This document shows, in pieces, positions 4,433 to 60,290 of a stretch of 64,000 nt of DNA (position 1 is the first letter of the stretch; the number at the start of each line of letters is the position of its first letter). The DNA is from a virus. A program made the position numbers and the translations under genes. The DNA lies in IMG/VR virus record IMGVR_UViG_3300000553_000005, positions 32,001 to 96,000 of that record. One strand, written 5' to 3'. Below the pieces are notes generated by a model that worked only from the letters and a program-made list of their open reading frames with translations, had not been told where the DNA came from and made no database searches.

Positions 4433-4819
4433 ATGCCATTTAACCCAACTAAACTTGCCGAATCTGTTTGTGACATTGCTGGAATTTGCTCCACTGGTCC
4501 TCGCGCAGAAGCCACTCAATCTTTTGCTCAAAAAGCTCCCGCTGTAGACAATACTATGCCTAATCCCCTCAGCCCCATTATGGGTGATGAGGCGTTCTTC
4601 ACCTATTTGATGCCTGGAGCCGTGTTTGAGGCCCACGATGGCTCTCAATGGCTTATTACAGCTTATGATTGGGATAGTAGAGTGGAGATTGAAAATCGCT
4701 GGTATCCTCGTCAGATTGCTAATGTAGGCCAAGCTGATATTCGCCGCTCTATCGCTATGTGGATAGAACCAGTTAATGTCCGTGTTCCTCCCCCAGTTTC
4801 TGCTGTGGAATACCAATAA
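4433..4819 (+). CDS. Hypothetical protein
   Basis: GAGGT RBS; co-directional ORF in the structural operon. Confidence 0.65.
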   Translation: MPFNPTKLAESVCDIAGICSTGPRAEATQSFAQKAPAVDNTMPNPLSPIMGDEAFFTYLMPGAVFEAHDGSQWLITAYDWDSRVEIENRWYPRQIANVGQADIRRSIAMWIEPVNVRVPPPVSAVEYQ

Positions 4820-4829
4820 AGAGGTATTC

Positions 4830-6389
4830 ATGATAGAGCTTACAGGTGAGAACCTCTCGACATATCTTTTACGAGAAATAAAAGATATCGTCAATAGAAA
4901 TCCACGCTTTAGAAGATTAGGTGGAGATGTTACGGTGTCCACTAATAATATGGTGGCCTGGGGTGATCTGCGTATTACTATTAGCCGAATCAATTCTTCA
5001 GGTAATAGATTAAGTCCTGACTATTTCATTTGTAATCAATATGGTCGAGCTTTATTAGCTAAGTTAGAAAATTATGACGGATTATTTATCGAATGGGTGC
5101 AAGAAATCCGAGATAATGGCTCCACCCTCCCTGCGTCCGGTGTTTATTACTTTAATATAGATGCAGTTAACGAAGGCACCAGAGACATTTTGTTAACTAT
5201 TCAAAATTATCAATGGATAAGACAAACTCCCGAACTGGCTTCAGGTTCACTCGTATACTTTAATTCTAATATTGATGTTTCAACTGTAACACCGATAGAT
5301 TCCACAGTTCAATATGTATACCAAGGTAATAATCTCGTTCTAACCAATTTCTATCCTAATTTTTTAGAACTTCAGGCCACCAATTCTAGTGGAATTTCAA
5401 CCCCTTTAATCCCAATGACAGATTTCTGGTATCTAAGACAAAATTCAGATATAATCTGTCAATCAACTTTAGGAGGAGAGCAGATTATTGCCCTTCCAAT
5501 ATCAAATTGGGTTTCTATGTCTATTTCAGACCAAGATGGTTATGTTTTGAGAGAGAATATAGACTATATTATTTTCGGAAGTAGTATTCAAACTAGCCAA
5601 TGGACTCCATCCGGTACAACTCTAACTTGTTCTTTTGTTGCCCCAGTTAGTCCAACTACTAATTTAGCGGTTAACCCAGAAAATTTAATTGCACCAAATC
5701 TACCTCCAGATGAGACTCCAACTCAAACCATTGTTTACTCCTCCCTTCTTAATAGATCTGCTGCTTCTGATTTCATTGTTTTACCAAATGGGGAAACATG
5801 GTTATCAACATTATTAGTCACTGGAGAGCGTTTCTATTGGGAATCCCGTGTAGATCTTGGTCAAACGCAACATAGAGCAAGAAAAATGGAGTCTAATCTA
5901 AATTTAATTCCAGGATTATCCATCGCTATTGGGGATCAAGTTTTTGTAGGAGATCAATGTGCTATTCTCGTTTCTCCTTACCAATCAGAAGTTTATGAGG
6001 TTTACGGCTCTAAAGATAATTTGACTTTTACTATAGAGGTCAAAGCTAATGATAGAATGACTGCTTCCGAAGTGTCAGAAATGATAAAAGGAGCATTTTT
6101 AATTCGTGATAGAGCTATTATGGAAGCAAATGGCCTGACTGTTTTTGAAATTTCTAGAGAAGCTAATTATGATTCGAGAGATGACTCAGGTACTGCCCCG
6201 TCAACTACTTACACTATGTCTGTCTCCGCTGCCGCTGATTGGGAACTTTACATCCCACTTGTGACTCGTATTTCTCAATTTGAAGTGGATGTAACCGAAA
6301 CTACTCAGAGTGACTTTTTAGGAAAAATCACAACCACCCCCAGATTCAAAACTTTAGGGGCTACTCAATTTCTACCCAACTATTCTTAA
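4830..6389 (+). CDS. Putative virion neck/tail-completion protein
   Basis: GAGGT RBS before ATG 4830; beta-rich; just upstream of sheath. Function inferred from position. Confidence 0.45.
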   Translation: MIELTGENLSTYLLREIKDIVNRNPRFRRLGGDVTVSTNNMVAWGDLRITISRINSSGNRLSPDYFICNQYGRALLAKLENYDGLFIEWVQEIRDNGSTLPASGVYYFNIDAVNEGTRDILLTIQNYQWIRQTPELASGSLVYFNSNIDVSTVTPIDSTVQYVYQGNNLVLTNFYPNFLELQATNSSGISTPLIPMTDFWYLRQNSDIICQSTLGGEQIIALPISNWVSMSISDQDGYVLRENIDYIIFGSSIQTSQWTPSGTTLTCSFVAPVSPTTNLAVNPENLIAPNLPPDETPTQTIVYSSLLNRSAASDFIVLPNGETWLSTLLVTGERFYWESRVDLGQTQHRARKMESNLNLIPGLSIAIGDQVFVGDQCAILVSPYQSEVYEVYGSKDNLTFTIEVKANDRMTASEVSEMIKGAFLIRDRAIMEANGLTVFEISREANYDSRDDSGTAPSTTYTMSVSAAADWELYIPLVTRISQFEVDVTETTQSDFLGKITTTPRFKTLGATQFLPNYS

Positions 6390-6915: not shown

Positions 6916-9900
6916 ATGGCACTTTTTGACCAGTACACCGCACCAGGAGTTTACACCACAGAGATAGTTGCTAATCCTGGCACCACACTCCAAAGTGGTC
7001 TTAATATTCCAATCTTCATTGGAGAAGGTTCTGAGACATTCCTTATTCAAAACTCAGAACTCCATAGAGGGTCTAGTGCTTCCTCAGATGATGCGGTAGT
7101 TAGCGAAGACCTCTCAGCCCAGGTTACCGGTTCCACCGCTGTCTTCCAACTGGGTTACTGGCCCGTTGTCACTGGCAATAACACTGGAACCATCACTAAT
7201 AATGTTCAGTATGTTACCGTTACTGATAATGGAGTTCCTGTTGTAGTGTCCTCTCTTAATGGTGCCACTGGTGTTGTGACCCTTCTAATTGCCCCTGCTG
7301 CTGGAGATCAACTTTCAGCTACTTACTATTTTAAGAGATCTGACACTCTATTTACTGACGTTCTTTCAGATCAAGTTCCTTCCTATGCTTCTCTCGCCAT
7401 TCCTGCCAATAGCTTAACTACTGGAACAGCTTCTCCCTTGACATTAACTCTTGATCAACCTGGATATTTAGGAAATCAGGTGTCTATCGCTGTTACTGTT
7501 GCTACAAGTGGCTCTGGAGTTACTGATTATGCTGCCATCACTGGAAGTGGAACAGACGCGATTTCCATTGAGGCTAGAAATTCTGCTGATAACTCCATTC
7601 GTTCTTGGGCAGCAATCGCAGCCTTAATTTCCAACTTGGGGAATATCCCCACTTTGAATGCTGGGAATGTAACTGTTAAATCTCTAACCGCTGCCTATTC
7701 AAATACCCCTGCCTATTTCGTTACAGCCACCCTTATGACTGGTGGTGCCGGTCCTGCCTCAAATACCGTTTTTAAGGTTAATCATATTCCTATTGTTGAT
7801 GGGACTAACGGTGGCGTAGTAACAAATAGCCCTACTCATGTTACTGCTTACGTAAACAATGTGAAAGTGTCTATTTCGGCTGTAAATGGTTTACAGGGAT
7901 TGGTTACTTTGACTAATCCAGTGCCATCCGGAAATACTTTGTCTATTTCTTATTTCACTAATACCTACCAAGATACATATGACCTTCTCCCATCTACAAA
8001 TGTTGTTGCAATAAACCAAGTTGGATTGGGACCAAACCGCGCTGATTTCATCAATGGTGTGGACTATGTTCTTGAAAATGTTTTGGATGGGAACGGCAAT
8101 ATTGTCCAACAGCAAATCCAGTGGGGAAATTCAGCCTCTACTACAGTCGCTACCTCTACTCCTGGTTATGTCCCATTTAACGCAACTGTTATCGCTACTA
8201 CCTTAGTTGACGAACAGATGTTCCTTCAGGTGTGCAGCGCACCTACTCCTGCTCCTTTACCTCCTGGGCTAAACACCACTTTCGTTCTTCCTGATATGCC
8301 TACTGATGGATCCGGCCAAAATAAAGGTTTAGGACCCGCCACTGACGATCCTTCTCTAATTCAGGTTTATGTAGGAACTCCTTCTGTTCCTAATGATGAA
8401 GAATCGGCTCTAGCTAGCGCCCTAGCAAGTGGCCCTGTGACTGTGATTCAACTATCCGGAGCTACCCAGACCTTCAAACTTCTCATTCCACCTACTGCTG
8501 GACAAATGGTATTTGCTACTTATACTCGCAACACTATTCAGGAAGCCACTTATACTTTAACTGTTGACACTCCAGGTATCACTGGTGTTGGAACTTATAG
8601 TATTACTGACCAGTATAACAATGAGCTTCCTACATTTGCCTTTGATGACTCTGCTGCGGTCTTAAATGTCTCTGGAACACAAGTTTCAGACGGAAATTTC
8701 TATGTTTCTGGTATTATTTGGCCCTATCAGTCTAATGATGGTGGGGAATATTCTGATATGAAGGGTGTTCCCGGTGTAACAGCCCCTGGAGAACTCTTAA
8801 TTAACTTTATTGCAGATCTAACCCCTGCCCATGTTGTGTCTTCTGGCGCACCCGCAACTGCTACAGTTGAAGGATTAGTCTTCACAGCTACTACACCTAG
8901 TAATGTCGCTAACAACATCACCATTAGTTTTGTTGCTGGGGTTGATGTTATTGACGCTGATGCCGTTACTGTTAATGGAAGTGCTATCACGGTAAACATT
9001 TCCGGACCTTCTTCAACTAGAACTAAAACAGGTATCTCAGGTCTTTTCACTTCTGGGATTAGCGTGACCATTGGACCCTATACTACGTCCATTACTTGTT
9101 CTTCTACCTCCGATTCTACTGTCGCTACTCCTGCTCCAGCGGTCAATTTTGCCGGGGGCAGCACTGGAGTAACTATCCCTGTTTCTCAAACATACACAGT
9201 AAATTATCTATCTTCTCCATTAGCTCCCCCCCAATATCTTGGGACTGGTTATTTGAATCAGACTTTCTCTTCCCCTGCTTTCGGATTAACTTTTACTCTC
9301 ATTAATCCCGCTGATGCAATCACCATGGGCTTCGTGGACGCTCCTACTCCTGTTTACTACTATGCCGTTAATGACCAGATTGGTTTCATTATTTCAGCCT
9401 CAAGTTTCACTACCTCTGCTGAACCTCAAATTGCTATTCTTGGTCTTTGGACAACCGTTACAACCACTTATGGTATGAATCCTGGTGATACAGCTACCAT
9501 CAGCACCCATAATAGAGCAGGAACAGAGCCTAATGTTGGAGACTACTACTATGTCTCTTACACTACTCAGAAAACCGCTGCGGATATGGCCCTTCAACTA
9601 TTTACTAATCCTCAAGACGCTTACACCGCTTATGGCGATCCTACTCCTTTAAATAGACTTTCCTTAGCTGCAAGTTTATTTACTCAAAATGGAGGTCAGG
9701 TCTTCGGATGTATCCAAGTTCCTAAATTAGCTGGCTCCAATTTTGCCTCGTCTAATACTTACATTTCAGCTATCGCTTCATTAGCTTCCCCAATCCCAGG
9801 AACTAATAAGAAAGCTGATATGATTCAAGTTTTAACCACTAATCCAACAGTTATTCAGTATCTTAATCGTTTCTTAATTACTCAAGCAGCCCCCCGTAAT

Positions 9901-30495: not shown

Positions 30496-30665
30496 TTTCT
30501 TTTTATCAGAAGATGTTAGAGAACCCTTGGCAGACGATTGAGATTGCTTCTATCATTATTCTTCTTGTCAATGTTCATTTTCTTCAAAAAAGGCTTCTGT
30601 TTATTGAGAGTTTGACCCATCAGCATCGTTCGGACCAACTCCTGATAGAAGAAAATCAAAAATAA
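30492..30665 (+). CDS. Small single-TM protein (57 aa; holin-like candidate; not in ORF track)
   Basis: ATGA overlap with the lysin stop codon; hydrophobic IEIASIIILLVNVHFL. Confidence 0.4.
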   Translation: MISFYQKMLENPWQTIEIASIIILLVNVHFLQKRLLFIESLTHQHRSDQLLIEENQK

Positions 30666-30668
30666 ACT

Positions 30669-30697
30669 GCCACAAATTTTCAGACTTTGAGTATAAT
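30669..30697 (+). promoter_or_regulatory. Promoter of the RNA-gene island
   Basis: GCCACAAA-N13-AGTATAAT. Confidence 0.7.
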
Positions 30698-30730
30698 ACA
30701 TACAGAGGGCAGCATCAGGGTGCAGCACTC

Positions 30731-30743
30731 ATTCCTTGACAAC
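30731..30743 (+). promoter_or_regulatory. boxA-like antitermination element (alternatively a TTGACA -35)
   Basis: ATTCCTTGACAAC about 30 nt after the predicted start of the tRNA/ncRNA transcript; resembles rrn leader boxA. Confidence 0.4.
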
Positions 30744-30797
30744 ATTATATGATAAGTGTAATAAATTTTGCTTGGTGCGCTAATTCGCACCTAAATC

Positions 30798-30930
30798 GCT
30801 GATGTTTTGCGTCTAGCTAAAGAGAGTCGCGTTCTCTAGCATTCACTAATTAGTCCACCCAACCGTAACTCCAGACTGCTCGACCTTCCCGGTTGAAGTA
30901 GGTGCATAAGTGGAGCTAGTGGATATCAGC
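30798..30930 (+). ncRNA. Unclassified structured RNA A (133 nt)
   Basis: Closing stem GCTGATGT/ATATCAGC; internal helices GCTA..GAGA/TCTC.TAGC, CTCCA/TGGAG, CGACC/GGTTG; no ORF. Confidence 0.5.
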
Positions 30931-30951
30931 ACATGACGGTGAATTTTTAAC

Positions 30952-31040
30952 TCTTACTGATTCCTGTAAGCAACAGGGTATGGTTCATTCGGTAGACCGG
31001 ATGCCAAAAGTTATGCAGACATAGGGCCTGTCCAGTAAGA
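30952..31040 (+). ncRNA. Unclassified structured RNA B (89 nt)
   Basis: Closing stem TCTTACTG/CAGTAAGA; hairpins CCTGT/ACAGG and CATTCGG/CCGGATG; ends 6 nt before a tRNA. Confidence 0.5.
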
Positions 31041-31046
31041 TTCCTC

Positions 31047-31132
31047 CCTCCCTTTGCCACACGGTGATGGCAGTGGCCTTTTAAGTCACCTTCCGTAAGG
31101 AATAGCGGGTTCAACTCCCGTGGGGAGGACCA
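31047..31132 (+). tRNA. Atypical tRNA, anticodon UUU (Lys) with long variable arm
   Basis: CCTCCCT/GGGGAGG-A-CCA; D stem GCCA/TGGC; GTGGC-CTTTTAA-GTCAC; V arm TTCC-GTAA-GGAA; GCGGG-TTCAACT-CCCGT. Confidence 0.75.
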
Positions 31133-31138
31133 TTCAAT

Positions 31139-31241
31139 GCGCCTATAGTTTAATGGTAGAACAGTTGGCCTATACCCAACCACCGAAAGGTAGCCGCTAG
31201 ATGTGCGGAGTGTCTTGGTTCAAATCCAGGTGGGCGTACCA
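31139..31241 (+). tRNA. tRNA-like RNA, anticodon loop CCUAUAC (UAU register, C33) with 33-nt two-hairpin variable region
   Basis: GCGCCTA/TGGGCGT-A-CCA; canonical D arm; GTTGG/CCAAC; ACC-GAAA-GGT and CCGC-TAGATGT-GCGG; CTTGG-TTCAAAT-CCAGG. Confidence 0.7.
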
Positions 31242-31293
31242 AAATAAGGAATCGAACTTCTAGACTTTCTGATTCATAATTAATGAGGTTCGT

Positions 31294-31866
31294 ATGCAAT
31301 GTAAAAAATGTGGGGCAGAGTTCACTCCAGGAAAAGGGCTAAAGAGCTTCTGTAGCTTAAAATGTAGAAATTCTCAAAATTTTAGTGAAGAGAGTAAAAA
31401 ACTCAAATCATTAAAAAATAAAGAGTTTCATGCTTCTTTAACTGAAGAGGAACTTGTAAGACTAAAAGATAAACTAGATAAAATGAGAGAAAAGAGAACC
31501 ACCAGATTTGATTACCTGTTTTCCAAAAAGTTTGAAGACTTGGCTTGGGATTCTAAAAGAGCCAGAGTTATTGTTGAACAAGAGTTGAAATGTAATAGAT
31601 GTAAGATTGATTCTTGGTTTGGCCTTCCAATTACTCTAGAAGTAGATCATAAAAATGGGAACAACAATGATGATTCAAGAGAAAATCTTGAGGGTCTGTG
31701 CCCAAACTGCCATAGTCAAACTCCAACTTGGAGAGGTAGGCATGAAAATAATAAACAAAAGAATCTTAAAATGATTAGAGTTCAGAAAGTTCTTGAAGAG
31801 ATCGTTGCTAGAGATAGTGACCCAGCAGCATTTTCCAGTACACAGCAGCACAAAAGCAAAAAGTGA
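31294..31866 (+). CDS. HNH homing endonuclease
   Basis: N-terminal CKKCG..FCSLKC; CNRC...LEVDHKNGNNNDDSRENLEGLCPNCHSQT. Confidence 0.9.
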   Translation: MQCKKCGAEFTPGKGLKSFCSLKCRNSQNFSEESKKLKSLKNKEFHASLTEEELVRLKDKLDKMREKRTTRFDYLFSKKFEDLAWDSKRARVIVEQELKCNRCKIDSWFGLPITLEVDHKNGNNNDDSRENLEGLCPNCHSQTPTWRGRHENNKQKNLKMIRVQKVLEEIVARDSDPAAFSSTQQHKSKK

Positions 31867-32533
31867 AGGAGAAACAACAGACCTCCCTTTTGTCGGGAAT
31901 AACGCCATGTTGTAAAGGTCAATGGCTTGCTTTTGTGAAACTGGACGAGAACTAGCGCGATAGCAAATGAGCAGGTTTGCGACCTAGCCGCTAGCTAGTC
32001 AGGAGCCTTCGCAAAGCCACCTGGAGCAACTCGTAAAACTCCAAAAAGTATCTTGGTGCTACACTGAGGGAGGCACGTTGTAAGCTCCCGGTCACAGGAA
32101 CTACGCTGCAAAATCCAAGACTCACCCTGGACAGGCATGAAGACCAGGGATGTAAATCAGGGTGCCATAACTCGTAAGGGCTGGCGATGAGAAAGGAAGT
32201 TGATAGATCGGCAACCACCCAAAAAAATCTAAGGTCGGATGTTTCAGTTGAGAGGCTGAAATGAGCAAAATGACAGTGGGGGAGAGGTCAACAAGACTCA
32301 AACGAGAACTCACCATCCGACTAACACGTTTCTTACTGGTCCCATTCACGGTAAGCTGGAGAAAACGGCTACTTGTTCCTGAAACGATAGGGAACTAACA
32401 ATCCAGAACCAAGCTGATTGATGCAAAGAAGTTGAATGGGTAATCGTAACGGATACTTGGGACGGAGAAAATGGGGGACCGTGATTACATGAAGCCCATA
32501 ACAGAGAAACCCAAGACAAATCTTTCCGCTACG
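31803..32533 (+). ncRNA. Large ornate structured RNA (~730 nt; ROOL/GOLLD-class candidate)
   Basis: GC-richer, no credible ORF, many helices: 31849-59/31927-37 (11 bp), 31817-22/32090-95, 32125-30/32144-49, 32234-41/32314-21, 32341-48/32433-40; GNRA-capped hairpins; within the tRNA cluster. Confidence 0.7.
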
Positions 32534-32578
32534 TTTATTTTTCTAAAAATTGGGTATTAACACACATAGGAGCAATAC

Positions 32579-32625
32579 ATGAGTCGTTTCACCTGAATAA
32601 CCTCCAACGCTTAACGTTTGGAGGT
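32579..32625 (+). promoter_or_regulatory. uORF MSRFT* plus RBS-sequestering hairpin
   Basis: AGGAG RBS, ATG 32579 to TGA 32596; hairpin ACCTCCAACG/CGTTTGGAGGT (32600-32625) buries the GGAGGT of the next gene. Confidence 0.55.
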
Positions 32626-32630
32626 GCCTT

Positions 32631-32768
32631 ATGGCCCAATCAGCAAAGCACAGCAAGTCTGTGCAAAAGATGTCCGATGAGCAGTTGCAGTCGGTCATCA
32701 GTAGTGGCTCTCTTCTTCACGCTGCGGCTCGTTTTGAGTTGCAGAGAAGGGGGGCTAGCAGGAAGTAA
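32631..32768 (+). CDS. Small basic protein (45 aa; not in ORF track)
   Basis: GGAGGT RBS; MAQSAKHSKSVQKMSDEQLQSVISSGSLLHAAARFELQRRGASRK*. Confidence 0.65.
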   Translation: MAQSAKHSKSVQKMSDEQLQSVISSGSLLHAAARFELQRRGASRK

Positions 32769-32774
32769 CACAAG

Positions 32775-32848
32775 TGGGGTGTAGGCTAATGGTAAACCAG
32801 AACCCTTTGAAGGTTCCCTTACAGGTTCAAGTCCTGTCGCCCTAACCA
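32775..32848 (+). tRNA. tRNA-Gln(UUG)
   Basis: TGGGGTG/CGCCCTA-A-CCA (U1-A72); GAACC-CTTTGAA-GGTTC; ACAGG-TTCAAGT-CCTGT. Confidence 0.9.
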
Positions 32849-32856
32849 TCAATGTC

Positions 32857-32972
32857 GCTGAGTTGTTGAATCCTGAAGGATTTGTATCTGCATCGCCTCA
32901 GTGGGATGAATGCTGTGAAAACATGATAAAAGGCATTGTGCATTCTCCCAATCGGTATATCCGATTCTCAGC
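32857..32972 (+). ncRNA. Unclassified structured RNA C (116 nt)
   Basis: Closing stem GCTGAG/CTCAGC; hairpins AATCC/GGATT, AATGC/GCATT, AATCGG/CCGATT. Confidence 0.5.
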
Positions 32973-33085
32973 AGCTCCATTTCTACCAAGATACCACCCC
33001 AAGTCTTACTAGACTGTTATAATGAAGGGGTTGGAACACGTTAATGGTGAACAGTTTCCAGCTTCCTGCTAAAAAGCTGGCTTAT

Positions 33086-33176
33086 GGCCCCATGGTGAAA
33101 TTGGTAGACACGTTGGCTTCAAATTCCAATGCGAAATAACAGTAGCGTCCCGGTTCGATTCCGGGTGGGGCTACCA
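33086..33176 (+). tRNA. tRNA-Leu(CAA)
   Basis: GGCCCCA/TGGGGCT-A-CCA; Leu-type D arm GTGAAATTGGTAGACAC; TTGGC-TTCAAAT-TCCAA (C31-U39 mismatch); long V region; CCCGG-TTCGATT-CCGGG. Confidence 0.8.
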
Positions 33177-33180
33177 ACAA

Positions 33181-33876
33181 TCATCTTTTCAAGTATTTTC
33201 TGATAGCATTATCAGACACCCCAAGCTCTTTGGCTAATGCTGTGAAGTTAGAAATTTTTAGTTTATTCAATATCTCTTCTTTTGAGGGCCATTGAATTTT
33301 TGGGGAAGTTGCTCTTGAACACAAAACGCAATTATTAGCTCTTGGGCTAATAATTTTTCCACAGACACACACTTTATGCACCTTTTGCTCTTTTGTCATT
33401 TTTATCATTTTTGGTGTCTTACGTTTATTTCTTCCAGCATGATTCACAGTTTGAGCATGACAGTTAGGGCAAATAATTCTGAGATTAGAAATAAGATTAT
33501 TCTGAGGGTTGCCATCTATATGATCTAATTCAAGGGGGGCCTCTTCTCCGTTCCATTCTGTAAGGTTACAAACAGAACACTCTCTTCTAAATATACCTTC
33601 CTGGAACAATCTATTTTTTAGTTTAAACGATTGAATGGTGAATTTATTAGATAAATAGTCTTGAATATCTCTTTTTGGTTCAAATTTTCTTCCCTTGCTC
33701 CAAAGTTGACCAGTGAAATGAGAGGTATCCACATTCCACTCTTCCACGGCTCTTTTGAATCCTAAGTAAGCTCCCCCGCTTCCTGCTAAATTTAAAGTTA
33801 GCAGCACTTGACGGATACTTAATGAGTTTGCTACAACTTCTTTAAATTGTTCTTCTGTATAGCTTCTTATTTTCAT
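33181..33876 (-). CDS. HNH homing endonuclease (opposite strand, inserted between tRNAs)
   Basis: CSVC...LELDHIDGNPQNNLISNLRIICPNCHAQT; C-terminal Zn ribbon and HTH (ALAKELGVSDNAIRK). Confidence 0.9.
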   Translation of the reverse strand: MKIRSYTEEQFKEVVANSLSIRQVLLTLNLAGSGGAYLGFKRAVEEWNVDTSHFTGQLWSKGRKFEPKRDIQDYLSNKFTIQSFKLKNRLFQEGIFRRECSVCNLTEWNGEEAPLELDHIDGNPQNNLISNLRIICPNCHAQTVNHAGRNKRKTPKMIKMTKEQKVHKVCVCGKIISPRANNCVLCSRATSPKIQWPSKEEILNKLKISNFTALAKELGVSDNAIRKYLKR

Positions 33877-33928
33877 GGTAAACCCTCCATATTACATTGG
33901 AAAGTTTGTTTACCTTTTCTTTTACAAC

Positions 33929-34046
33929 GCCCGAATAGCAGAATTGGCATATGCAATGGACTTATCGACTCCTCTAATGTAGGTGGATGGAGGTAGTCAC
34001 ACCCAAAATCCATGGTTTGCGGGTTCGACTCCCGCTTCGGGCACCA
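33929..34046 (+). tRNA. tRNA-Leu(UAA) interrupted by a 41-nt insertion in the anticodon (33964-34004)
   Basis: GCCCGAA/TTCGGGC-A-CCA; Leu-type D arm; ATGGA-CTT[41 nt]AAAA-TCCAT; GCGGG-TTCGACT-CCCGC. Confidence 0.75.
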
Positions 34047-34053
34047 ATTTCAA

Positions 34054-34138
34054 GGGTGAGTAGCTCAGAGAAAGAGCATCTAGTGGTGATTGAGTTCATC
34101 TTAGAAGGTCGGTGGTTCAAGTCCACCCTCATCCACCA
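34054..34138 (+). tRNA. tRNA-like RNA with Ala identity (G3.U70, A73), no G18G19, elongated anticodon arm
   Basis: GGGTGAG/CTCATCC-A-CCA; D loop AGAGAAA; TCTAG-[17 nt with GGTGA/TCATC stem]-TTAGA; GGTGG-TTCAAGT-CCACC. Confidence 0.7.
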
Positions 34139-34186
34139 ATTTTTGATATTTTCGACTTCTGATCTACTAGTAGAGGTCACTTTAAA

Positions 34187-34381
34187 ATGACTCAGATAAG
34201 AAGGTCAGTCGAAGAAAAAATGATAGCAAAAGCTCACTTAGAGTTTGAAAAAAGAATCACGTTTGCTGCTAAAGAAGCTATTCGTGTGCGTAGAGCTATG
34301 AAATTATGGGGAATCTTAACTACGATAGGTTCTCTTTGCAGCATTCTTCTTTTATTCTTGTATATTTTTAGTAAAAAATAA
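34187..34381 (+). CDS. Small protein with C-terminal TM helix
   Basis: GAGGT RBS; hydrophobic C-terminus. Confidence 0.6.
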   Translation: MTQIRRSVEEKMIAKAHLEFEKRITFAAKEAIRVRRAMKLWGILTTIGSLCSILLLFLYIFSKK

Positions 34382-34386
34382 ACAAA

Positions 34387-34504
34387 TTTGCGGGTCTTAA
34401 CTCAGAAATGAACAGAGACAGTCGTAACGTGTGGGCCAAGAGGGAAGCACCCTCTCCATCCCGGCAAAATTAGAAAGTCTAGCTAGCTTATCTAAACCCG
34501 CAAA
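34387..34504 (+). ncRNA. Unclassified structured RNA D (118 nt)
   Basis: 9-bp closing stem TTTGCGGGT/ACCCGCAAA; internal AGAGGG/CCCTCT hairpin. Confidence 0.45.
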
Positions 34505-34535
34505 CTTTTCAGTATTAACGCTTATAGGAGAAGGA

Positions 34536-35051
34536 ATGCCAACCAAGGATTTCATTCAAGCAGTGAATACTGAATATGCTAAGAGACAATCTTTCTCTCG
34601 TAAAAAATTGGAGAAACCATACAGTTACAGATTCTGGTACCCAATTTTCCCATCTAGCTGGCGTTTGTTTTGCTCTCGCTGGTGGTTACATTGGTTCACT
34701 CTTCATAATTATACACAGTTCTTCTCTATCAAATGGCAGAGAATGACCAGAGGCTACGCCGATGTGGATCTCTGGAACATGAACGACACATTGGCCTATC
34801 TTCTTCATGAGATGGCTGCTGATTTTACGGAAACCCATCACGGTTGTCCTTTCGGAACTACTTCTGAAGAATACCAGGAGCAACTGATTGTTATGGTTAG
34901 TGGTTTTGAAGCCATGTATGAGATGCTTTCAGAAGAAGGGATGCCTGACTACAACACTCCTGAATACAAAGTATGGATAGCTGACAAAGAGACTCGTTGG
35001 GAAGTTGGGATGAAGATCTTCAAAGAAGAATTTTCAGGACTGTGGGACTGA
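34536..35051 (+). CDS. Conserved hypothetical phage protein
   Basis: RGYADVDLWNM...HGCP...FSGLWD; start at ATG 34536 after AGGAG. Confidence 0.7.
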   Translation: MPTKDFIQAVNTEYAKRQSFSRKKLEKPYSYRFWYPIFPSSWRLFCSRWWLHWFTLHNYTQFFSIKWQRMTRGYADVDLWNMNDTLAYLLHEMAADFTETHHGCPFGTTSEEYQEQLIVMVSGFEAMYEMLSEEGMPDYNTPEYKVWIADKETRWEVGMKIFKEEFSGLWD

Positions 35052-35071
35052 AAAATTTCTGAAAATAAGTT

Positions 35072-35100
35072 GCCACAAAACTCTTAGAACACGGTATAAT
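35072..35100 (+). promoter_or_regulatory. Promoter motif RCYACAAA-N13-RGTATAAT
   Basis: GCCACAAA-N13-GGTATAAT. Confidence 0.7.
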
Positions 35101-35146
35101 AAAGTATGACAACGAGGCCGATGCCTCTAACTTAAAGGAGCCAACA

Positions 35147-35527
35147 ATGGCGAAGCGTTTTCTTATCAACGGTGTGGAAGTCCTGGCTGAAGATCTTGGC
35201 AGTGGGAAGTGGTGTGCGGTCCCGGTGGATCTCCCTGGCACTATTCTCAAGGTGCTGAGTGGGAAGATCAACATCAATGATTTCCTCAACCCCAGCAATC
35301 TCAACATCCAGCCTCTTGGGGACAAGGAAGAGGCCCAGGATGAGTGTGAGGGTTGCGCGTGTGAACAGGAGGCCCCGGCTCGTAGCAAGTCTAGCAAGAC
35401 CGTGCGCGAGTATCGCAAGGCCGAAGGTATGAACAAGACCGAGATGGCTGATTATCTGGGTGTCAGTCGCCGCACTCTTGGCCGCTGGGAAGATGCTGGC
35501 AAGCTGGCCTCTGAGGTCGGTCTGTAA
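35147..35527 (+). CDS. XRE-type HTH DNA-binding protein
   Basis: VREYRKAEGMNKTEMADYLGVSRRTLGRWE; AAGGAG RBS; visibly GC-richer than neighbours. Confidence 0.8.
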   Translation: MAKRFLINGVEVLAEDLGSGKWCAVPVDLPGTILKVLSGKININDFLNPSNLNIQPLGDKEEAQDECEGCACEQEAPARSKSSKTVREYRKAEGMNKTEMADYLGVSRRTLGRWEDAGKLASEVGL

Positions 35528-35534
35528 GTAGAAC

Positions 35535-35617
35535 TTCAGTGCTAGGGGCAAGAGGGACGCAAGAGTAGCGCTTGGCTGCGTCCTTCTGGAACGGCAAGTG
35601 CAAATCCGTCAACTGAA
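35535..35617 (+). ncRNA. Unclassified structured RNA E / structured 3' UTR (83 nt)
   Basis: TTCAGT/ACTGAA closing stem; 11-bp hairpin 35551-61/35577-87; ACGG/CCGT hairpin with GTGCAAAT loop. Confidence 0.4.
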
Positions 35618-35621
35618 CTTC

Positions 35622-35648
35622 AAGACCCCAGGAAACTGGGGTCTTTTT
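35622..35648 (+). terminator. Intrinsic terminator
   Basis: AGACCCCAG-GAAA-CTGGGGTCT-TTTT. Confidence 0.85.
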
Positions 35649-35684
35649 GTAGTATTAAGCATAGAGGCTAATATGGAGGAGAGT

Positions 35685-35867
35685 ATGGAGATTATTAAAA
35701 AAGGAAAATTGCCAGATGACATCGCCTATAAGGGTGAATGCCACTACTGCGGCACCATAGTTCGCTTCAAACGTTCTGAGGGTCATGTGGTATATGACCA
35801 AAGAGATGGTAACTCTGTCTCTGTCTGCTGCCCCCTCTGCCACAACAATATTTACGTAAGCCTTTAA
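35685..35867 (+). CDS. Small Zn-ribbon protein
   Basis: GGAGGA RBS; CHYC...CPLC. Confidence 0.65.
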   Translation: MEIIKKGKLPDDIAYKGECHYCGTIVRFKRSEGHVVYDQRDGNSVSVCCPLCHNNIYVSL

Positions 35868-35877
35868 AGGAGAGAAA

Positions 35878-36108
35878 ATGTTAAGTCTTGAATCAGTCAT
35901 GAAACGAACCGAAATTGAGTATGAAAAGGTCACTGGGGTAAAAGGAGTTCATTCTGAGCAAATAAAGGCCCTTGCTGCCGCTCTGGTAGGTGAAATCAAC
36001 ATAGAGCTTCAAGGTATTCACGATAGTCTTACCGGGGCTTACAAGCTAGCCAGGAAGCTAGATGGTGAGATAGCTGGTTCTGTTAGAATCATAGGGGGAA
36101 GACATTAA
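35878..36108 (+). CDS. Hypothetical protein
   Basis: AAGGAG RBS; tightly packed with neighbours. Confidence 0.6.
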   Translation: MLSLESVMKRTEIEYEKVTGVKGVHSEQIKALAAALVGEINIELQGIHDSLTGAYKLARKLDGEIAGSVRIIGGRH

Positions 36109-36389
36109 TGTTAGATGGAACTGAATACTTTGAATGTGCTTGCGGGGGTGATGAACACACTCTCCGTTTCATTATTGATAAAGAAGATAAAAGACTATAC
36201 ACTTCTGTATTCCTTAATGATTACCAATCTATTTGGAAGCGTGTTTGGATCGCCATTAAATATATTTTTGGCTATAAGTGCCAGTATGGTCATTGGGATT
36301 ACTGGATCATGCGTTACGAAGATATTCCTAGAATGAGAGAGATGCTAGACAAAATGGATGGGGCAGACCCAACTAAGGAGAAATCGTGA
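36108..36389 (+). CDS. Hypothetical protein
   Basis: FECACGGDEH...WKRVWIAIKYIFG motif; overlapping start/stop. Confidence 0.65.
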   Translation: MLDGTEYFECACGGDEHTLRFIIDKEDKRLYTSVFLNDYQSIWKRVWIAIKYIFGYKCQYGHWDYWIMRYEDIPRMREMLDKMDGADPTKEKS

Positions 36390-36751
36390 TAGGTTCAATC
36401 TTAGCTTTAATCTGGCTCCATTTCATTGCTGATTTTGTGCTTCAGACTGATAAGATGGCTATCAATAAGAGTTCCAACAATCTGTGGCTCGGTTTTCATG
36501 TTCTGGTTTACACAACGGTCCTTCTTCTTTTTGGTTGGCAGTTTGCCCTGTTGAATGGAGTTGCTCACTTCTTAACAGATTGGATAACTTCTAGGGTAAC
36601 TTCCTATCTTTGGAAAAAAGAAAAGCGTCATTGGTTTTTTACAGTTATAGGCTTGGATCAGGCCATTCACATGACCACTCTTATCCTTATATTTAACTAC
36701 TTTTTTAAGAATTTCATCCATATGCCTCTAGTCAGTTGGATAATGAAGTAA
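36386..36751 (+). CDS. DUF3307-like membrane protein
   Basis: HFIADFVLQT...HVLVY...HFLTD...GLDQAIH. Confidence 0.8.
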   Translation: MIGSILALIWLHFIADFVLQTDKMAINKSSNNLWLGFHVLVYTTVLLLFGWQFALLNGVAHFLTDWITSRVTSYLWKKEKRHWFFTVIGLDQAIHMTTLILIFNYFFKNFIHMPLVSWIMK

Positions 36752-36787
36752 GTATACAACTTTTCTCTCCTTTTATTGGAGGGAAAA

Positions 36788-37180
36788 ATGTTGAGTCATA
36801 TAATTAATGTAGTTTATAGTGTTTTTAGGGAAAAATTAGTAAAAAAGGTAACAAGAAGTCCTGAATGGCCGAAAGTCGAGAAAGAACATCTTGAGTCTCA
36901 ACCATTTTGTGCAGCGTGTGGGGGAAAGGACCGACTTCAAGTTCATCATCAGCAGCCTTTCCACTCTGATCCAGCTTTGGAACTTGATCCTCATAATCTT
37001 ATAACTCTTTGTATGTCTACATTAGAGTGCCACCTCCGAATCGGCCACGGTGGCTCATTTAAGCAATATAACCCAAACGTTGTAGCTGATTGTATAACTC
37101 TCACCCTTCACCCCGATCAGAGATCTGTTATTGAAAAGAAAGCTTTTGACTCAAGAAAACCGAATGAACCTGGAGATTAA
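36788..37180 (+). CDS. Small HNH endonuclease
   Basis: CAACG...LQVHH...NLITLC...CHLRIGH. Confidence 0.8.
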   Translation: MLSHIINVVYSVFREKLVKKVTRSPEWPKVEKEHLESQPFCAACGGKDRLQVHHQQPFHSDPALELDPHNLITLCMSTLECHLRIGHGGSFKQYNPNVVADCITLTLHPDQRSVIEKKAFDSRKPNEPGD

Positions 37181-37269
37181 GGCTTAAAATTTGCGTATCG
37201 TTTTTTCTTCTCGGTAATTGAGTATTAACACAAGAGGGACGAGTTCCCCCCATTTTAAAGGAGCATTAC

Positions 37270-37482
37270 ATGGCAAGACATACTGGTAACCGCTGGACTA
37301 ATTACAGCACTGCTACACTCGTTGATATGGCTGCGGCTGGCTACACTCGCTCTGAGATCGCCACCCGCCTTCAGCGCACTCCCATCGCTATCAAGCGTAA
37401 GATGCATTCCTTGAAGTATCATTTTGTTCGTAATTTGAATTTCGGTCAGTTTGCAAATATTGTCCTTAATTCTAATGAGTAA
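37270..37482 (+). CDS. Small HTH-like DNA-binding protein
   Basis: RWT...GYTRSEIATRLQRTPIAIKRK; GGAG RBS. Confidence 0.65.
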   Translation: MARHTGNRWTNYSTATLVDMAAAGYTRSEIATRLQRTPIAIKRKMHSLKYHFVRNLNFGQFANIVLNSNE

Positions 37483-37485
37483 ATT

Positions 37486-37592
37486 TTTTGCCTTGGGCGG
37501 CGTGGACAGATCAGCCTTCAAGCACAGTAAGGCCAGCCTTGTGCTGGTTACGGACTAACGCTGGTGTAAACGAAACCCGCTCCAAGGTAAAA
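37486..37592 (+). ncRNA. Unclassified structured RNA F (107 nt)
   Basis: Closing helix TTTTGCCTTGG.GCGG/CCGC.T.CCAAGGTAAAA; internal ATCAGC/GCTGGT, AGCAC/GTGCT; ends 9 nt before tRNA-Lys. Confidence 0.5.
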
Positions 37593-37601
37593 GACTACTA
37601 T

Positions 37602-37679
37602 GGTCCCATAACTCAGGCCGGATAGAGTACCGCCCTTTTAAGGCGAAAGTCACAGGTTCAAATCCTGTTGGGATCACCA
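37602..37679 (+). tRNA. tRNA-Lys(UUU)
   Basis: GGTCCCA/TGGGATC-A-CCA; CGCC-CTTTTAA-GGCG; ACAGG-TTCAAAT-CCTGT. Confidence 0.88.
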
Positions 37680-37698: not shown

Positions 37699-39123
37699 AT
37701 GAAGCTGAATTTGGGTTGCGGATTTAACCATTTAGAAGGATTTGTCAATGTAGATCAGCACCCTTCAACCGGTGCTGATTTCATTTGGAATCTTGAAACT
37801 CTCCCTTGGCCGTGGGAGGATAGCTCTGTAGAAGAAATTCAATTAACTCATGTTCTTGAGCATATTGGACAGCAAACAAATAAATACTTGGCTATCATTA
37901 AAGAAATCTATAGAGTTTGTGCCCCGGATGCTAGGGTTACTATTGAAGTCCCTCATCCTTTGCACCCCGATTACTTAGGTGATCCTACTCATTGTAGACC
38001 AGTGACTTATGAAAGTCTTCGTCTGTTTGATTTAGATTTTGCTGATATGCTTATTGCTCATCATAGCCCTGGAACCCCCTTAGCTAGGTTTATGAAAGTT
38101 GATCTTCAAGTAGTAGACCATTTACAATTTTTTGATTCAGACAGAGGGATTCTTCAAGTAAGCAGAATGATTTTGAGAGTTAAGAAGCCATTTAGGGAAT
38201 TACCAGAAGAAATTTCTATCTGTGAAATGAGTATGGGCCTAGGGGATATTTGCATGGCTTTGTGTGTAGCTAAAGCTCTGGCTCATAAAAATTACAAGAT
38301 ACATTTTGTTACGATACCTAAATGGCACGATCTTATCAAGGCTTGCCCACACGTTAGTTCCGTTAGTTCTAAACAGACTGCTAAGGATATTTATCTTTCC
38401 CCTGCTTGGTTCCAACTTCAAGCTGCCCATCAGGTAGACACTTTATTAAAAGCTTGCGGAGTGACTGATGTTTCTAACCATTTTAAATCTTTAGATTTAA
38501 ATATTTCCCCTTCTGTTCTTGAAAATATTCAAACAAGATTTCCTGGAAATAAAAGAATAGCCATTAATCCTGCTTGTAATACAGAGAATCGTAGGTGGCC
38601 TATTGAATATTGGAAAGAATTAGTTCGTTTACTTCAAACTTCAGGAATAGAAGTATGTTCTTTAGGGATGACATCTTGGTATGGAGTTAATAATTCTCAT
38701 CAATTTGAAGGAGTCACTAATGTTTTTGATCTCTCTACTTTTGAAGCTATAGCTTTTTTACGACAATGTAAAGTATTAGTTTCGGGAGATTCAGGTCCAA
38801 TTCAACTGGCCGGGGCTACTGATTGCGGTATTGTAGGATTATACTCAGTTGTCTCGTCCCAATGGAGGCTACCTTTCCGTCATGGAGAATTAGGATGGAA
38901 CGCTATTGGATTAAATTCTACCTGTCCTCATGCTCCCTGCTTCCCTAAATTAGTGAAGGATACAAATTTTTTATGGTCCAATGAAGCTCAAGCTTCTCTC
39001 AATTCTGGGGTATCTATGGGTGATCTTGTTAGAAATTGGTGCCCCAACGGTGCTATCACTTGTATGCAAGAAATTCCGGTATCTATGGTATATGATTCGG
39101 TTATGAAATTATGGAATACTTAA
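37699..39123 (+). CDS. SAM-methyltransferase-like domain fused to GT9 (heptosyltransferase-like) glycosyltransferase
   Basis: N-terminal KLNLGCG...HVLEHI...DPTH; C-terminal MGLGDI...RRWPIEYW...VSGDSGPIQLAGA. Confidence 0.85.
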   Translation: MKLNLGCGFNHLEGFVNVDQHPSTGADFIWNLETLPWPWEDSSVEEIQLTHVLEHIGQQTNKYLAIIKEIYRVCAPDARVTIEVPHPLHPDYLGDPTHCRPVTYESLRLFDLDFADMLIAHHSPGTPLARFMKVDLQVVDHLQFFDSDRGILQVSRMILRVKKPFRELPEEISICEMSMGLGDICMALCVAKALAHKNYKIHFVTIPKWHDLIKACPHVSSVSSKQTAKDIYLSPAWFQLQAAHQVDTLLKACGVTDVSNHFKSLDLNISPSVLENIQTRFPGNKRIAINPACNTENRRWPIEYWKELVRLLQTSGIEVCSLGMTSWYGVNNSHQFEGVTNVFDLSTFEAIAFLRQCKVLVSGDSGPIQLAGATDCGIVGLYSVVSSQWRLPFRHGELGWNAIGLNSTCPHAPCFPKLVKDTNFLWSNEAQASLNSGVSMGDLVRNWCPNGAITCMQEIPVSMVYDSVMKLWNT

Positions 39124-59144: not shown

Positions 59145-60290
59145 ATGACAGATCCTAAGGAAAAGAAGTTAGCCATGAGCGAAGTGGCGTTATTATCAGA
59201 AAAAGCCAAGAAGTATGACCCCTTGGCTACGGAAGCAGAGGTAGTAGCAGATATTCGCAGAGTGCAGGAAGATTACCCGACTAAGCATATTACTCGTAAT
59301 TTCTATCGTATTTATGGTAAGTACTCTGATGGCACTTGGAACAAATATTTTGGTACATGGTTAGAGGCGAGAAGGCAAGCAGGGCTGGAACTCAATCGCT
59401 TCCAGCATGGAGTTGAACGTGATGTGGCTAAACATGCCCATCTAGATTTATATCGTCAATTTCAAAAAGATGAAATTGATCCTTGGGTTGGTAACTATAC
59501 GCTTCCCCCCGAAAACGGGGAGCGTTTTAAGAAAATCTTAATTTGCTCAGACCTTCATGATAAGCAGCTAGATCCCTTCTGTTGGTCAGTTTTTCTTGAT
59601 ACCGCCGCCAGAGTCCAGCCAGATGTTATTGTTTTAGCAGGGGATGTTTATGATGAGGCAGAGTTCTCCAGATTTGATCAAGATCCTCGTCAATATAGCA
59701 TCAAGGAAGCCTCTGATTTTGTTAAAGAAAAGATTTTTAAGCCCTTGAGAGAAGTTTGCCCAACTACTCAAATTGACTTTATTATTGGCAACCATGATCT
59801 CCGCATCCTTAAATATCTAGCTAATAAATGTGCTAATATGAGGGTATTGCTATCTGATGTTATGGATCTTACTCTAGAAGATCTCCTTGGGTTGAAGGAA
59901 TTCAACATCAAGCTAGTTTCTAGATTTGATCTAAGTGCCTTTACCCCTGCTGAAAAGAGGTCTGAGATCAAGACCAACTATAAAATTTACTACAATTCAC
60001 TAGTAGTAGACCACCATGGCCTCCAAACTTTTGGCCTCTCAGTTTGCTACGGGCATACTCACAGGACTAAGATGGACTCCAGTGCCAATCTAATCGTTGG
60101 CCCCATTCATGCGGTGAATATGGGTTGCATGGCAAAGATTGACTTTGAGTATCAAGAACGTATGAACAAGTCTCACCAATCTTTCTGTCTTTGGCATATT
60201 GATACTAAAACCAAACAATGCCAACCCGAACATTTCATTTTCACTGATGAAATGATCTGTGTGGCAGGTAAATTCTATACTAGAGGCTGA
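59145..60290 (+). CDS. Calcineurin-like metallophosphoesterase with N-terminal helical domain
   Basis: CSDLH, AGDVYD, IGNHD, HHG, GHTHR. Confidence 0.85.
   Translation: MTDPKEKKLAMSEVALLSEKAKKYDPLATEAEVVADIRRVQEDYPTKHITRNFYRIYGKYSDGTWNKYFGTWLEARRQAGLELNRFQHGVERDVAKHAHLDLYRQFQKDEIDPWVGNYTLPPENGERFKKILICSDLHDKQLDPFCWSVFLDTAARVQPDVIVLAGDVYDEAEFSRFDQDPRQYSIKEASDFVKEKIFKPLREVCPTTQIDFIIGNHDLRILKYLANKCANMRVLLSDVMDLTLEDLLGLKEFNIKLVSRFDLSAFTPAEKRSEIKTNYKIYYNSLVVDHHGLQTFGLSVCYGHTHRTKMDSSANLIVGPIHAVNMGCMAKIDFEYQERMNKSHQSFCLWHIDTKTKQCQPEHFIFTDEMICVAGKFYTRG

Follow-up and report, generated by a model that had tools for sequence, protein, structure and literature searches.

An HNH-associated tRNA cluster of a jumbo-size phage with members of widespread non-standard tRNA families

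The locus at positions 30669-37679 (7011 nt) of a 64,000-nt stretch of viral DNA is probably a transfer RNA (tRNA) cluster of a jumbo-size phage that has been remodelled by free-standing HNH endonucleases and is followed by ordinary early-type small genes. The whole stretch, hereafter the window, comprises bases 32001-96000 of the 139.8-kb IMG/VR virus record IMGVR_UViG_3300000553_000005, and the CheckV completeness of ~49% for this record indicates a phage of jumbo size. Seven tRNA-like genes, numbered el1 to el7 in their order along the window, each end in an encoded CCA; el3 (Gln-UUG), el4 (Leu-CAA) and el7 (Lys-UUU) are canonical, and el1, el2, el5 and el6 are non-canonical. At least two of these four odd tRNAs, and on weaker grounds a third, are members of widespread, non-standard families that seem to be undescribed; a literature search found no description of the el2-type or el6-type family, nor of the concentration of variable-arm hairpins reported below. 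An earlier, sequence-only reading had singled out the locus as the best candidate in the window for an undescribed system; the locus itself proved to be of a known kind, and it is its odd tRNAs that lead to new ground.

Search with ARAGORN revealed five tRNAs in standard mode and seven in intron mode, which allows insertions in the anticodon loop. The Rfam model RF00005 (gathering score 29 bits) matched six of the seven genes at 36-61 bits, the exception being el5, which reached only 22 bits with a tRNA-Sec-like match and is called by ARAGORN with an intron. No further tRNA-like gene was found in the whole 139.8-kb record. The anticodon arm is standard in el1, el3, el4 and el7, with a stem of 5 bp, a 7-nt loop, U33 and purine 37; it is not so in el2 (C33), el5 (48-nt loop) and el6 (10-bp arm with a 6-nt loop). 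Moreover, el1 (Lys-UUU) and el2 (UAU) have a long variable arm outside the Leu, Ser, Tyr and Sec species, and el5 (Leu-UAA) is without one. All four aberrant elements nevertheless keep perfect acceptor and T stems. Seven CCA-ending cloverleafs, four of them abnormal and each in its own way, had been proposed from the sequence, and the gene calls and structures uphold both counts. The readable anticodons (UUU twice, UUG, CAA, UAA and UAU) match the A/U-rich codons favoured by the phage, where AAA makes up 61% of Lys, CAA 66% of Gln and UUA 28% of Leu codons; together with the three canonical tRNAs, this speaks against the earlier assertion that the locus is not a codon-supplementation cassette.

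Two protein genes among the tRNAs, at 31294-31866 and 33181-33876, encode free-standing HNH endonucleases. Their HNH_3 and HNH Pfam matches score below the gathering score, and the HNH Cys, His and Asn columns are invariant across 17 homologs. The first protein (190 residues) has 154 homologs, and the second gene has 72 blastn matches to HNH loci. Among the loci with an HNH homolog, collected from fetched contexts and an alignment-based scan of IMG/VR, 77 of 87 carry tRNAs, with 872 calls in total. Loci used for comparison carry labels beginning with L; a set of 255 of them amounts to 2.1 Mb of DNA from phage tRNA clusters. The homolog of the first HNH gene lies just after a 92-nt el2-type tRNA(UAU) in L009 and L010, and just before a 90-nt one in L006. 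In L010 (234-989), an el2-type gene is in two parts: its initial 25 nt and its terminal 39 nt, which are 100% and 90% identical to el2 of the window, respectively, lie ~690 nt apart, and the interval holds a second tRNA(UAU), the HNH gene and a further stretch resembling a tRNA. From this layout, the gene looks like the scar of an endonuclease-linked insertion, or like a split gene. The arrangement directly attests remodelling linked to an endonuclease, and is indirect evidence of site-specific cutting of alleles without the endonuclease and of its preferential inheritance. The pattern matches the established homing of SegB in the tRNA region of phage T4 (PMC2330249, PMC13096335). Directly upstream of the split gene lies the 3' part of a transfer-messenger RNA (tmRNA) gene (L010:1-232, RF00023, 48.9 bits).

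The anticodon loop of el2 is CCUAUAC, and its variable region of 33 nt forms two hairpins. We define the YAGAU family by three features, namely UAU as the anticodon, AGAU within the 7-nt loop of a variable-arm hairpin, and A73 followed by CCA; el2 fits this definition with its UAU anticodon, the hairpin CCGC-UAGAUGU-GCGG and its ACCA end. Alignment of ten independently found relatives showed compensatory changes in 17 of the 20 predicted pairs. The UAU anticodon with A37 and the AGAU of the variable-arm loop are invariant, and the stem of that arm covaries. A pattern composed of these features matched at least 120 stretches in IMG/VR, 105 of which (101 unique sequences) are called by ARAGORN as tRNA(tat) of 89-99 nt. 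The same pattern matched at least 120 stretches in bacterial genomes, 66 of which are tRNA(tat) calls, some of them in cultured Xanthomonas, Microbulbifer and Ruegeria; viral and bacterial calls together span 84-99 nt. Alignment and predicted fold place el2 in a widespread tRNA(UAU) family, from whose other members it deviates slightly.

Members of this family presumably read AUA. CAGAUUA and CAGAUAA are the most frequent variable-arm loops, and tRNA-Ile(GAU) of the same loci has CUGAUAA or UUGAUAA as its anticodon loop. The variable-arm loop C-A-G-A-U-A/U-A, like a second anticodon loop, matches CUGAUAA at five or six of seven positions. It could offer a point of contact to host isoleucyl-tRNA synthetase (IleRS) or to another enzyme, so that AUA would be read without lysidine. 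E. coli IleRS charges tRNA with a UAU anticodon poorly (PMC3575796), and bacteria and phages are held to avoid this anticodon (PMC8007984); despite this avoidance, a large tRNA(UAU) family with an invariant AGAU in its extra-arm loop occurs in many phages and bacteria.

The element el6 departs further from a decoding tRNA. A 17-nt segment forming a second stem replaces its 7-nt anticodon loop, and it has an AGAGAAA D loop without GG, a G3.U70 pair, A73 and CCA. We define the AGAGAAA family by the D arm UAGCUCAGAGAAAGAGC, an AGGUC-type variable loop, a standard T arm, an NCCA end and a covarying acceptor stem. A search with the D-arm and T-loop pattern matched 41 stretches in IMG/VR, and 37 distinct relatives align over the full length with el6, which meets this definition (38 sequences). 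In the alignment, 96.6% of cells are paired and 214 are compensatory, a level reached by none of 500 shuffles, and slid controls pair in 43-51% of cells; the covariation check on related loci suggested earlier thus came out positive for both el2 and el6. The anticodon arm of the family is a covarying hairpin with UUCG or GNRA tetraloops, loops of 3-10 nt or extended stems, and a 5-bp stem closing a 7-nt loop with U33 is present in only ~4 of the 38 members; for most members ARAGORN fails or makes odd calls. A conserved cloverleaf with a variable anticodon arm, mostly unfit in its loop, points to an RNA of tRNA shape without selection for decoding. The family keeps its acceptor, D and T arms and most likely acts without reading codons, its anticodon arm being evidently not for decoding, and el6-type RNA could serve as a decoy for factors recognising the tRNA acceptor end or elbow, or as their substrate. 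G3.U70 and A73 are determinants for alanyl-tRNA synthetase, and G3.U70 is peculiar to el6, being absent from the other 37 members. The genes beside solitary members share no protein family or integrase.

Other unusual tRNA frames were noticed in the comparison set. Four loci hold tRNA-like genes of 117-121 nt (L064:1753-1869, L098:3375-3495, L137:10195-10315 on the minus strand and L190:77-195), in which a conserved domain with AAAGGUGAnCCUGUnAAGGnUACGUUCAGCAAU replaces the anticodon arm. In addition, L012 (3078-8193) and L016 (441-5992) contain many copies of one tRNA frame with a common 5' acceptor and D arm (AGTCAGGTGGCGGAATGGTAGACGC), T arm and 3' acceptor, and with differing middles of 40-70 nt.

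The element el1 is a tRNA-Lys(UUU) with a UUCC-GUAA-GGAA hairpin in its variable arm. The same type occurs in L020, L022, L025, L031, L034 and L043; by comparison with these genes, el1 is a recurrent phage variant, not a decaying pseudogene. The extra arm of such long tRNAs is a short hairpin, often GNRA-capped. We surveyed length in 2353 unique tRNA calls from the fetched loci, taking ≥83 nt as the long form. Long forms make up 9 of 77 Lys-UUU, 9 of 87 Thr-UGU, 6 of 94 Asn-GUU and 5 of 96 Pro-UGG calls, and at most 2.8% in the other class I types with at least 15 calls, Ile-UAU being set aside, since 113 of 124 calls in that el2-family species are long. Lys-UUU, Thr-UGU and Asn-GUU together have 24 long forms among 258 calls, compared to 22 among 1473 (odds ratio 6.8, p 2e-9, with relatedness ignored).

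AriB, the nuclease of the PARIS defence system, acts mainly on Lys-UUU, Thr-UGU and Asn-GUU and possibly, to a minor extent, on Pro-UGG; its cleavage site is at position 40/41 (PMC12409363). Added variable-arm hairpins are accordingly concentrated in the tRNA species cleaved by a known defence nuclease, and on Lys, Thr and Asn tRNAs they would be a structural means of escape from AriB-like enzymes. Counter-defence by phage tRNAs is established (PMC10264068, PMC11464382, PMC11555353): the T5 tRNAs for Lys, Thr and Asn escape PARIS AriB (PMC11464382, PMC12409363), phage tRNAs with variant anticodon loops escape tRNA-cleaving defence (PMC10264068), and phage tRNAs also escape retron and PtuAB defence (PMC11555353).

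The element el5 carries 41 nt within its anticodon loop at U34/A35 and has a 5-nt variable loop. Its exons resemble the intron-bearing tRNA-Leu(UAA) genes of L010 and L049, which have a ~280-nt group I intron at U34/A35 in addition to a long variable arm. Such introns of tRNA-Leu(UAA) are found in cyanobacteria, plastids and phages (PMC3984707), and el5 shares with them the foreign sequence at U34/A35 and similar exons. By contrast, its insert is much shorter, lacks the intron core and ends in C or A rather than in a terminal G; self-splicing as a group I intron is excluded. The L010 intron matches RF00028 at 34.5 bits (E 4e-7), below the gathering score; no RF00028 match at E<5 was found for the el5 insert in the window, and an nhmmer profile of four phage tRNA introns matched only tRNA exons there, with no intron core. 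From these comparisons, el5 is most likely dead, the remnant of a tRNA-Leu(UAA) gene whose group I intron was lost. Group I introns of ~280 nt were observed at L010:1166-1535, L049:~4590-4890, L072:1-230 and L073:~7620-7900, with nearly identical 3' ends (…GAAAACUAUAGUGGUAAG); their host genes are Leu-UAA and, in L073, a tRNA with a CAU anticodon. The loop of the el5 insert, GGUGGAUGGAGGU (33973-33994), is largely complementary to the 3' acceptor and CCA of el6 (34125-34146; 73% over 22 nt), which could be chance.

The relic el5 raises the question whether the aberrant elements and ORF-free (free of open reading frames) stretches are altogether endonuclease-eroded debris, leaving only tRNA-Gln, tRNA-Leu(CAA) and the second tRNA-Lys at work. 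We consider this unlikely. The el5 gene without the core and long arm of its relatives, the C33 and extra insertion of el2, the tRNA gene of L010 that is split next to a member of the HNH family and the orphan nature of the spacers would all fit such decay. However, the perfect acceptor and T stems and encoded CCA of the four elements do not, nor do the matches of el1, el2 and el6 to conserved types with compensatory changes. Lack of conservation, which the sequence-only reading had named as a mark of decaying pseudogenes, was found for the non-tRNA elements and not for el1, el2 and el6. The last three match types that recur on many unrelated contigs, which indicates that their odd features are selected and not accidental. 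Moreover, three independent assemblies of the same phage (L001-L003; 99.98-100% identity) are identical or one base apart in the region; they give no sign of ongoing erosion and leave no variation to analyse.

The sequence between the tRNAs provides little to support the structured RNAs read into it earlier. The stretch 31867-32589, taken as one RNA of ~730 nt, has a folding z-score of -0.35 on the plus and -1.31 on the minus strand against dinucleotide shuffles, and -1.7 to +1.4 in 120-nt sliding windows. It has no Rfam match at E<5 with permissive filters, even though the same library caught the divergent group I intron of L010. Neither this stretch nor any spacer has an nhmmer homolog in the 255 loci, and an exact 18-mer and an exact 20-mer from the stretch are both absent from IMG/VR. 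The stretch was also considered as a protein pseudogene and as a group I or II intron; both were rejected, the former with no Pfam or PHROG match in six read-through frames, the latter with no match to Rfam or to the four-intron profile. Could the stretch, possibly with 32590-32774, nonetheless be a new large structured RNA of the GOLLD (RF01998) or ROOL (RF03087) kind? GOLLD and ROOL RNAs sit beside tRNAs in phages, and the stretch resembles them as a large ORF-free segment adjoining phage tRNA genes, with non-coding composition, 49% G+C compared to ~40% in the genome, a strong excess of A on the sense strand and several GUAA loops. It differs from them in having no model match, no signal of stability, either global or local, and no homolog, and relatives of its neighbouring genes are not syntenic. 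We thus regard a new RNA of this kind as very improbable.

Of the short segments, about six of which had been proposed as stem-closed RNAs, three fold better than shuffles, namely 32590-32776 (-72.5 kcal/mol, z -4.25), directly 5' of tRNA-Gln, 37483-37601 (-43.9 kcal/mol, z -3.56), both with none of 200 shuffles as stable, and 35528-35672 (z -3.55), which includes an intrinsic terminator. Excess stability is lacking in 30798-30930, 30935-31046, 32973-33085 (z 0.06) and 34386-34535, and is marginal in 32857-32972 (z -2.2). Within 32579-32768, a 10-bp hairpin (32600-32625) buries the Shine-Dalgarno sequence GGAGGU ahead of a 45-residue ORF (32631-32768), which has a weak or negative coding score and no PHROG match; the segment is possibly a regulated gene of small size, or else a leader that gives the tRNA transcript structure.

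These results can be weighed against the claim that the island consists chiefly of RNA effectors that do not decode, released from one precursor, and that act on anticodon nucleases as decoys, on ribosomes or aminoacyl-tRNA synthetases as modulators, or as scaffolds, the spacers and the 730-nt RNA being functional as well. El6 and its relatives, with a covarying cloverleaf and CCA but a freely varying anticodon arm, fit a non-decoding role, as would the G3.U70 and A73 seen in el6 alone; two ORF-free segments directly 5' of tRNAs reach z ~-4, and the 730-nt stretch has non-coding composition, with much A on its transcribed strand. Nevertheless, the spacers and the 730-nt stretch have no homologs or Rfam match and mostly no excess stability, el6-family genes share no neighbouring protein partner, the G3.U70 pair is missing from all relatives, and three tRNAs are canonical with all readable anticodons fitting phage codon use. 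Besides, proteins dominate the span rather than RNA: protein genes, recognised by Pfam or PHROG matches or coding signal, cover 4041 of its 7011 nt (58%), and 34187-37482 is coding throughout. The part concerning el6 stands as a candidate, that concerning the spacers is not supported, and an island composed mainly of effectors is improbable. Most simply, the ORF-free stretches, including that of 730 nt, are lineage-specific spacer or leader sequence arising from repeated endonuclease-driven insertion, and on present evidence the non-tRNA "RNAs" of the window are of no importance.

Several points weigh against a cluster of decoders and counter-defence tRNAs remodelled by endonucleases. It contains 1.6 kb of ORF-free non-tRNA sequence, which is much for a phage, and two of its segments fold far better than shuffles, so that some non-tRNA RNAs may be real. 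The C33 and the extra ACC-GAAA-GGU hairpin of el2 are not matched in its relatives, 10 of 10 of which have U33 and a single hairpin, and el2 may be impaired by its C33. The perfect stems of el5 are unexpected for a long-dead pseudogene. The loci that gave the long-arm enrichment were chosen through the HNH family or tRNA patterns, with relatedness uncorrected, and for this non-random sample the enrichment is a lead. Finally, the link to PARIS and PrrC rests on work in E. coli.

Taking these points into account, we still favour the remodelled tRNA cluster and propose the following course. The sigma-70-like promoter at 30668 would drive a polycistronic precursor, from which host RNase P and 3' processing would release tRNAs with CCA already encoded. 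The cluster would supply decoders for the A/U-rich codons preferred by the phage and would probably also replace host tRNAs destroyed by tRNA-cleaving defence systems, with Lys(UUU) supplied twice, once as the hairpin variant el1. Gene content, family memberships, covariation and the association of the endonuclease family with tRNA clusters are observed, and we infer one-unit transcription, processing and nuclease resistance, as well as any role of el6. The broader proposition that phage tRNA islands carry at least two undescribed classes of tRNA-derived RNA working outside codon reading, plus nuclease-escape hairpins, is in our judgement rather doubtful. Phage tRNA clusters are now viewed as counter-defence loci besides codon suppliers, and the observations on el2, el6 and the variable-arm hairpins, if confirmed, would add to the means by which viruses are known to remodel tRNAs.

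The features of the locus are listed in the table below. The motif TGCCACAAA-N15-TATAAT has two matches in the window compared to none expected from 100 shuffles, in agreement with the conserved promoter proposed ahead of the cloverleafs. The boxA-like element proposed with it was not recovered: UGCUCUUUAACAA has no match within 3 mismatches on the plus strand of 30669-31046, with the host, and hence its consensus, not identified. The span holds eleven clear protein genes, the 45-residue ORF being a doubtful twelfth. A three-periodic Markov coding score, trained on long ORFs of the phage, is non-coding at 30640-31300, 31840-32620 and 32860-33160, in agreement with the gene calls.

Table. Features in and at the edge of the locus (positions in the window; aa, amino acids; HTH, helix-turn-helix; z, folding z-score; bits, RF00005 score)
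Feature	Position	Strand	Basis or remark
Sigma-70-like promoter motif, copy 1	30668-30697	+	TGCCACAAA-N15-TATAAT; head of tRNA cluster
ORF-free leader	30698-31046	+	non-coding score; z -1.7 to +1.7; no nhmmer homolog; no boxA
el1, tRNA-Lys(UUU) with GNRA-capped variable-arm hairpin	31047-31132	+	86 nt; 36.3 bits; ARAGORN
el2, tRNA(UAU) with variable-arm YAGAU hairpin	31139-31241	+	51.1 bits; alignment, covariation, census
Free-standing HNH homing endonuclease, 190 aa	31294-31866	+	HNH_3; 154 homologs
ORF-free 730-nt stretch	31867-32589	+	A-rich, GC-rich; non-coding score; no Rfam match
Four-hairpin element directly 5' of tRNA-Gln	32590-32774	+	-72.5 kcal/mol, z -4.25 (to 32776)
el3, canonical tRNA-Gln(UUG)	32775-32848	+	ARAGORN; 54.8 bits
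ORF-free spacer	32849-33085	+	32857-32972 closed by GCUGAG/CUCAGC, marginal stability
el4, canonical class II tRNA-Leu(CAA)	33086-33176	+	ARAGORN; 47.9 bits
Second free-standing HNH endonuclease, 231 aa	33181-33876	-	HNH and C-terminal HTH; antisense to tRNA transcript
el5, tRNA-Leu(UAA)-derived, 41-nt insert at U34/A35, short variable loop	33929-34046	+	ARAGORN intron mode
el6, tRNA-like RNA with AGAGAAA D loop	34054-34138	+	49.6 bits; family alignment
Run of nine small protein genes	34187-37482	+	Pfam, PHROG, coding score
Transmembrane protein	34187-34381	+	called on coding score and hydrophobic tail only
Small protein gene	34536-35051	+	nine-gene run; no family listed
Promoter motif, copy 2	35071-35100	+	ahead of HTH gene
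HTH regulator	35147-35527	+	Pfam/PHROG; nine-gene run
Intrinsic terminator after HTH gene	35622-35645	+	10-bp stem, then T run
phrog_2834 member	35673-35867	+	PHROG
Small protein gene	35878-36108	+	nine-gene run; no family listed
phrog_12660 member	36108-36389	+	PHROG
DUF3307 membrane protein	36386-36751	+	nine-gene run
Third HNH protein	36788-37180	+	nine-gene run
Second HTH protein	37270-37482	+	nine-gene run
119-nt stem-closed element directly 5' of last tRNA	37483-37601	+	-43.9 kcal/mol, z -3.56
el7, canonical tRNA-Lys(UUU)	37602-37679	+	ARAGORN; 61.2 bits

Outside the window, the same record (G000:C1) encodes an Rnl1-type RNA ligase (125995-126603) and a nucleotidyltransferase of the PolyA_pol/CCA-adding type (137512-137856), and a metallophosphoesterase lies at 59145-60290 of the window; the three together are possible tRNA repair functions. 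RtcB was not found in the record. After the last tRNA follows a 474-residue protein (37699-39123) with a heptosyltransferase-type glycosyltransferase domain (Glyco_transf_9) and an N-terminal part that by eye is methyltransferase-like. Search of INPHARED revealed no isolated phage resembling the region, apart from generic tRNA and HNH similarity. A single-protein search of IMG/VR with the upstream GH46-like gene gave no match; the homologs found for it sit on tiny contigs, and an alignment-based scan of JGI metagenomes gave seven loci, none with tRNAs or synteny. The UvsX-like gene has no relatives in IMG/VR.

Compared to known systems, the locus is closest in organization to the tRNA regions of phages T4 and T5. 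The T5 region carries HNH enzymes. As in those regions, genes for free-standing endonucleases lie among the tRNA genes, with 77 of 87 loci tying the endonuclease family strongly to tRNA clusters, and the cluster is plausibly an anti-defence locus. It differs in being small (seven genes), with over half of the genes non-canonical; its enzymes are predicted HNH endonucleases, whereas SegB of T4 is a GIY-YIG enzyme.

The el2 family shares its long variable arm and UAU anticodon with the allo-tRNAs and the nematode tRNA-Ile(UAU) with a long variable arm (PMC5389517, PMC4300185). Allo-tRNAs occur in bacteria and phages, have UAU among their predominant anticodons, adopt 8/4 or 9/3 folds and are thought to accept Ser (PMC5389517), and the nematode nev-tRNAs are charged with Leu (PMC4300185). 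By contrast, el2 and its aligned relatives fold as 7/5 (acceptor/T) with A73 rather than G73 or U73, and have an invariant AGAU in a 7-nt variable-arm loop. The D arm is standard in el2 and six of the ten relatives, and has a long stem with a tetraloop in L018, L021, L051 and L061; some pattern matches with such a D arm, e.g. those in L018 and L259, may overlap the allo-tRNA group.

The tRNA-like domain of tmRNA resembles el6 in its G3.U70, A73 and CCA, a D loop without GG and the absence of an anticodon, and the related phage clusters L010, L014 and L065 encode tmRNA. El6 was nevertheless rejected as a tmRNA: ARAGORN makes no such call, no tag reading frame or pseudoknots were identified in it, and its only Rfam match to the tmRNA model is a sub-threshold one of 22.5 bits driven by the T arm.

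T4 uses an Rnl1-type ligase against PrrC, and the present phage likewise encodes a ligase of this type. Similar to the tRNAs that escape PARIS, non-host-like variants occur here in tRNA species cleaved by AriB, and Lys(UUU) is duplicated. The known escapes, however, are point changes in the anticodon stem-loop, whereas the change here is an added variable-arm hairpin, which adjoins the reported AriB cleavage site at 40/41 and may confer resistance.

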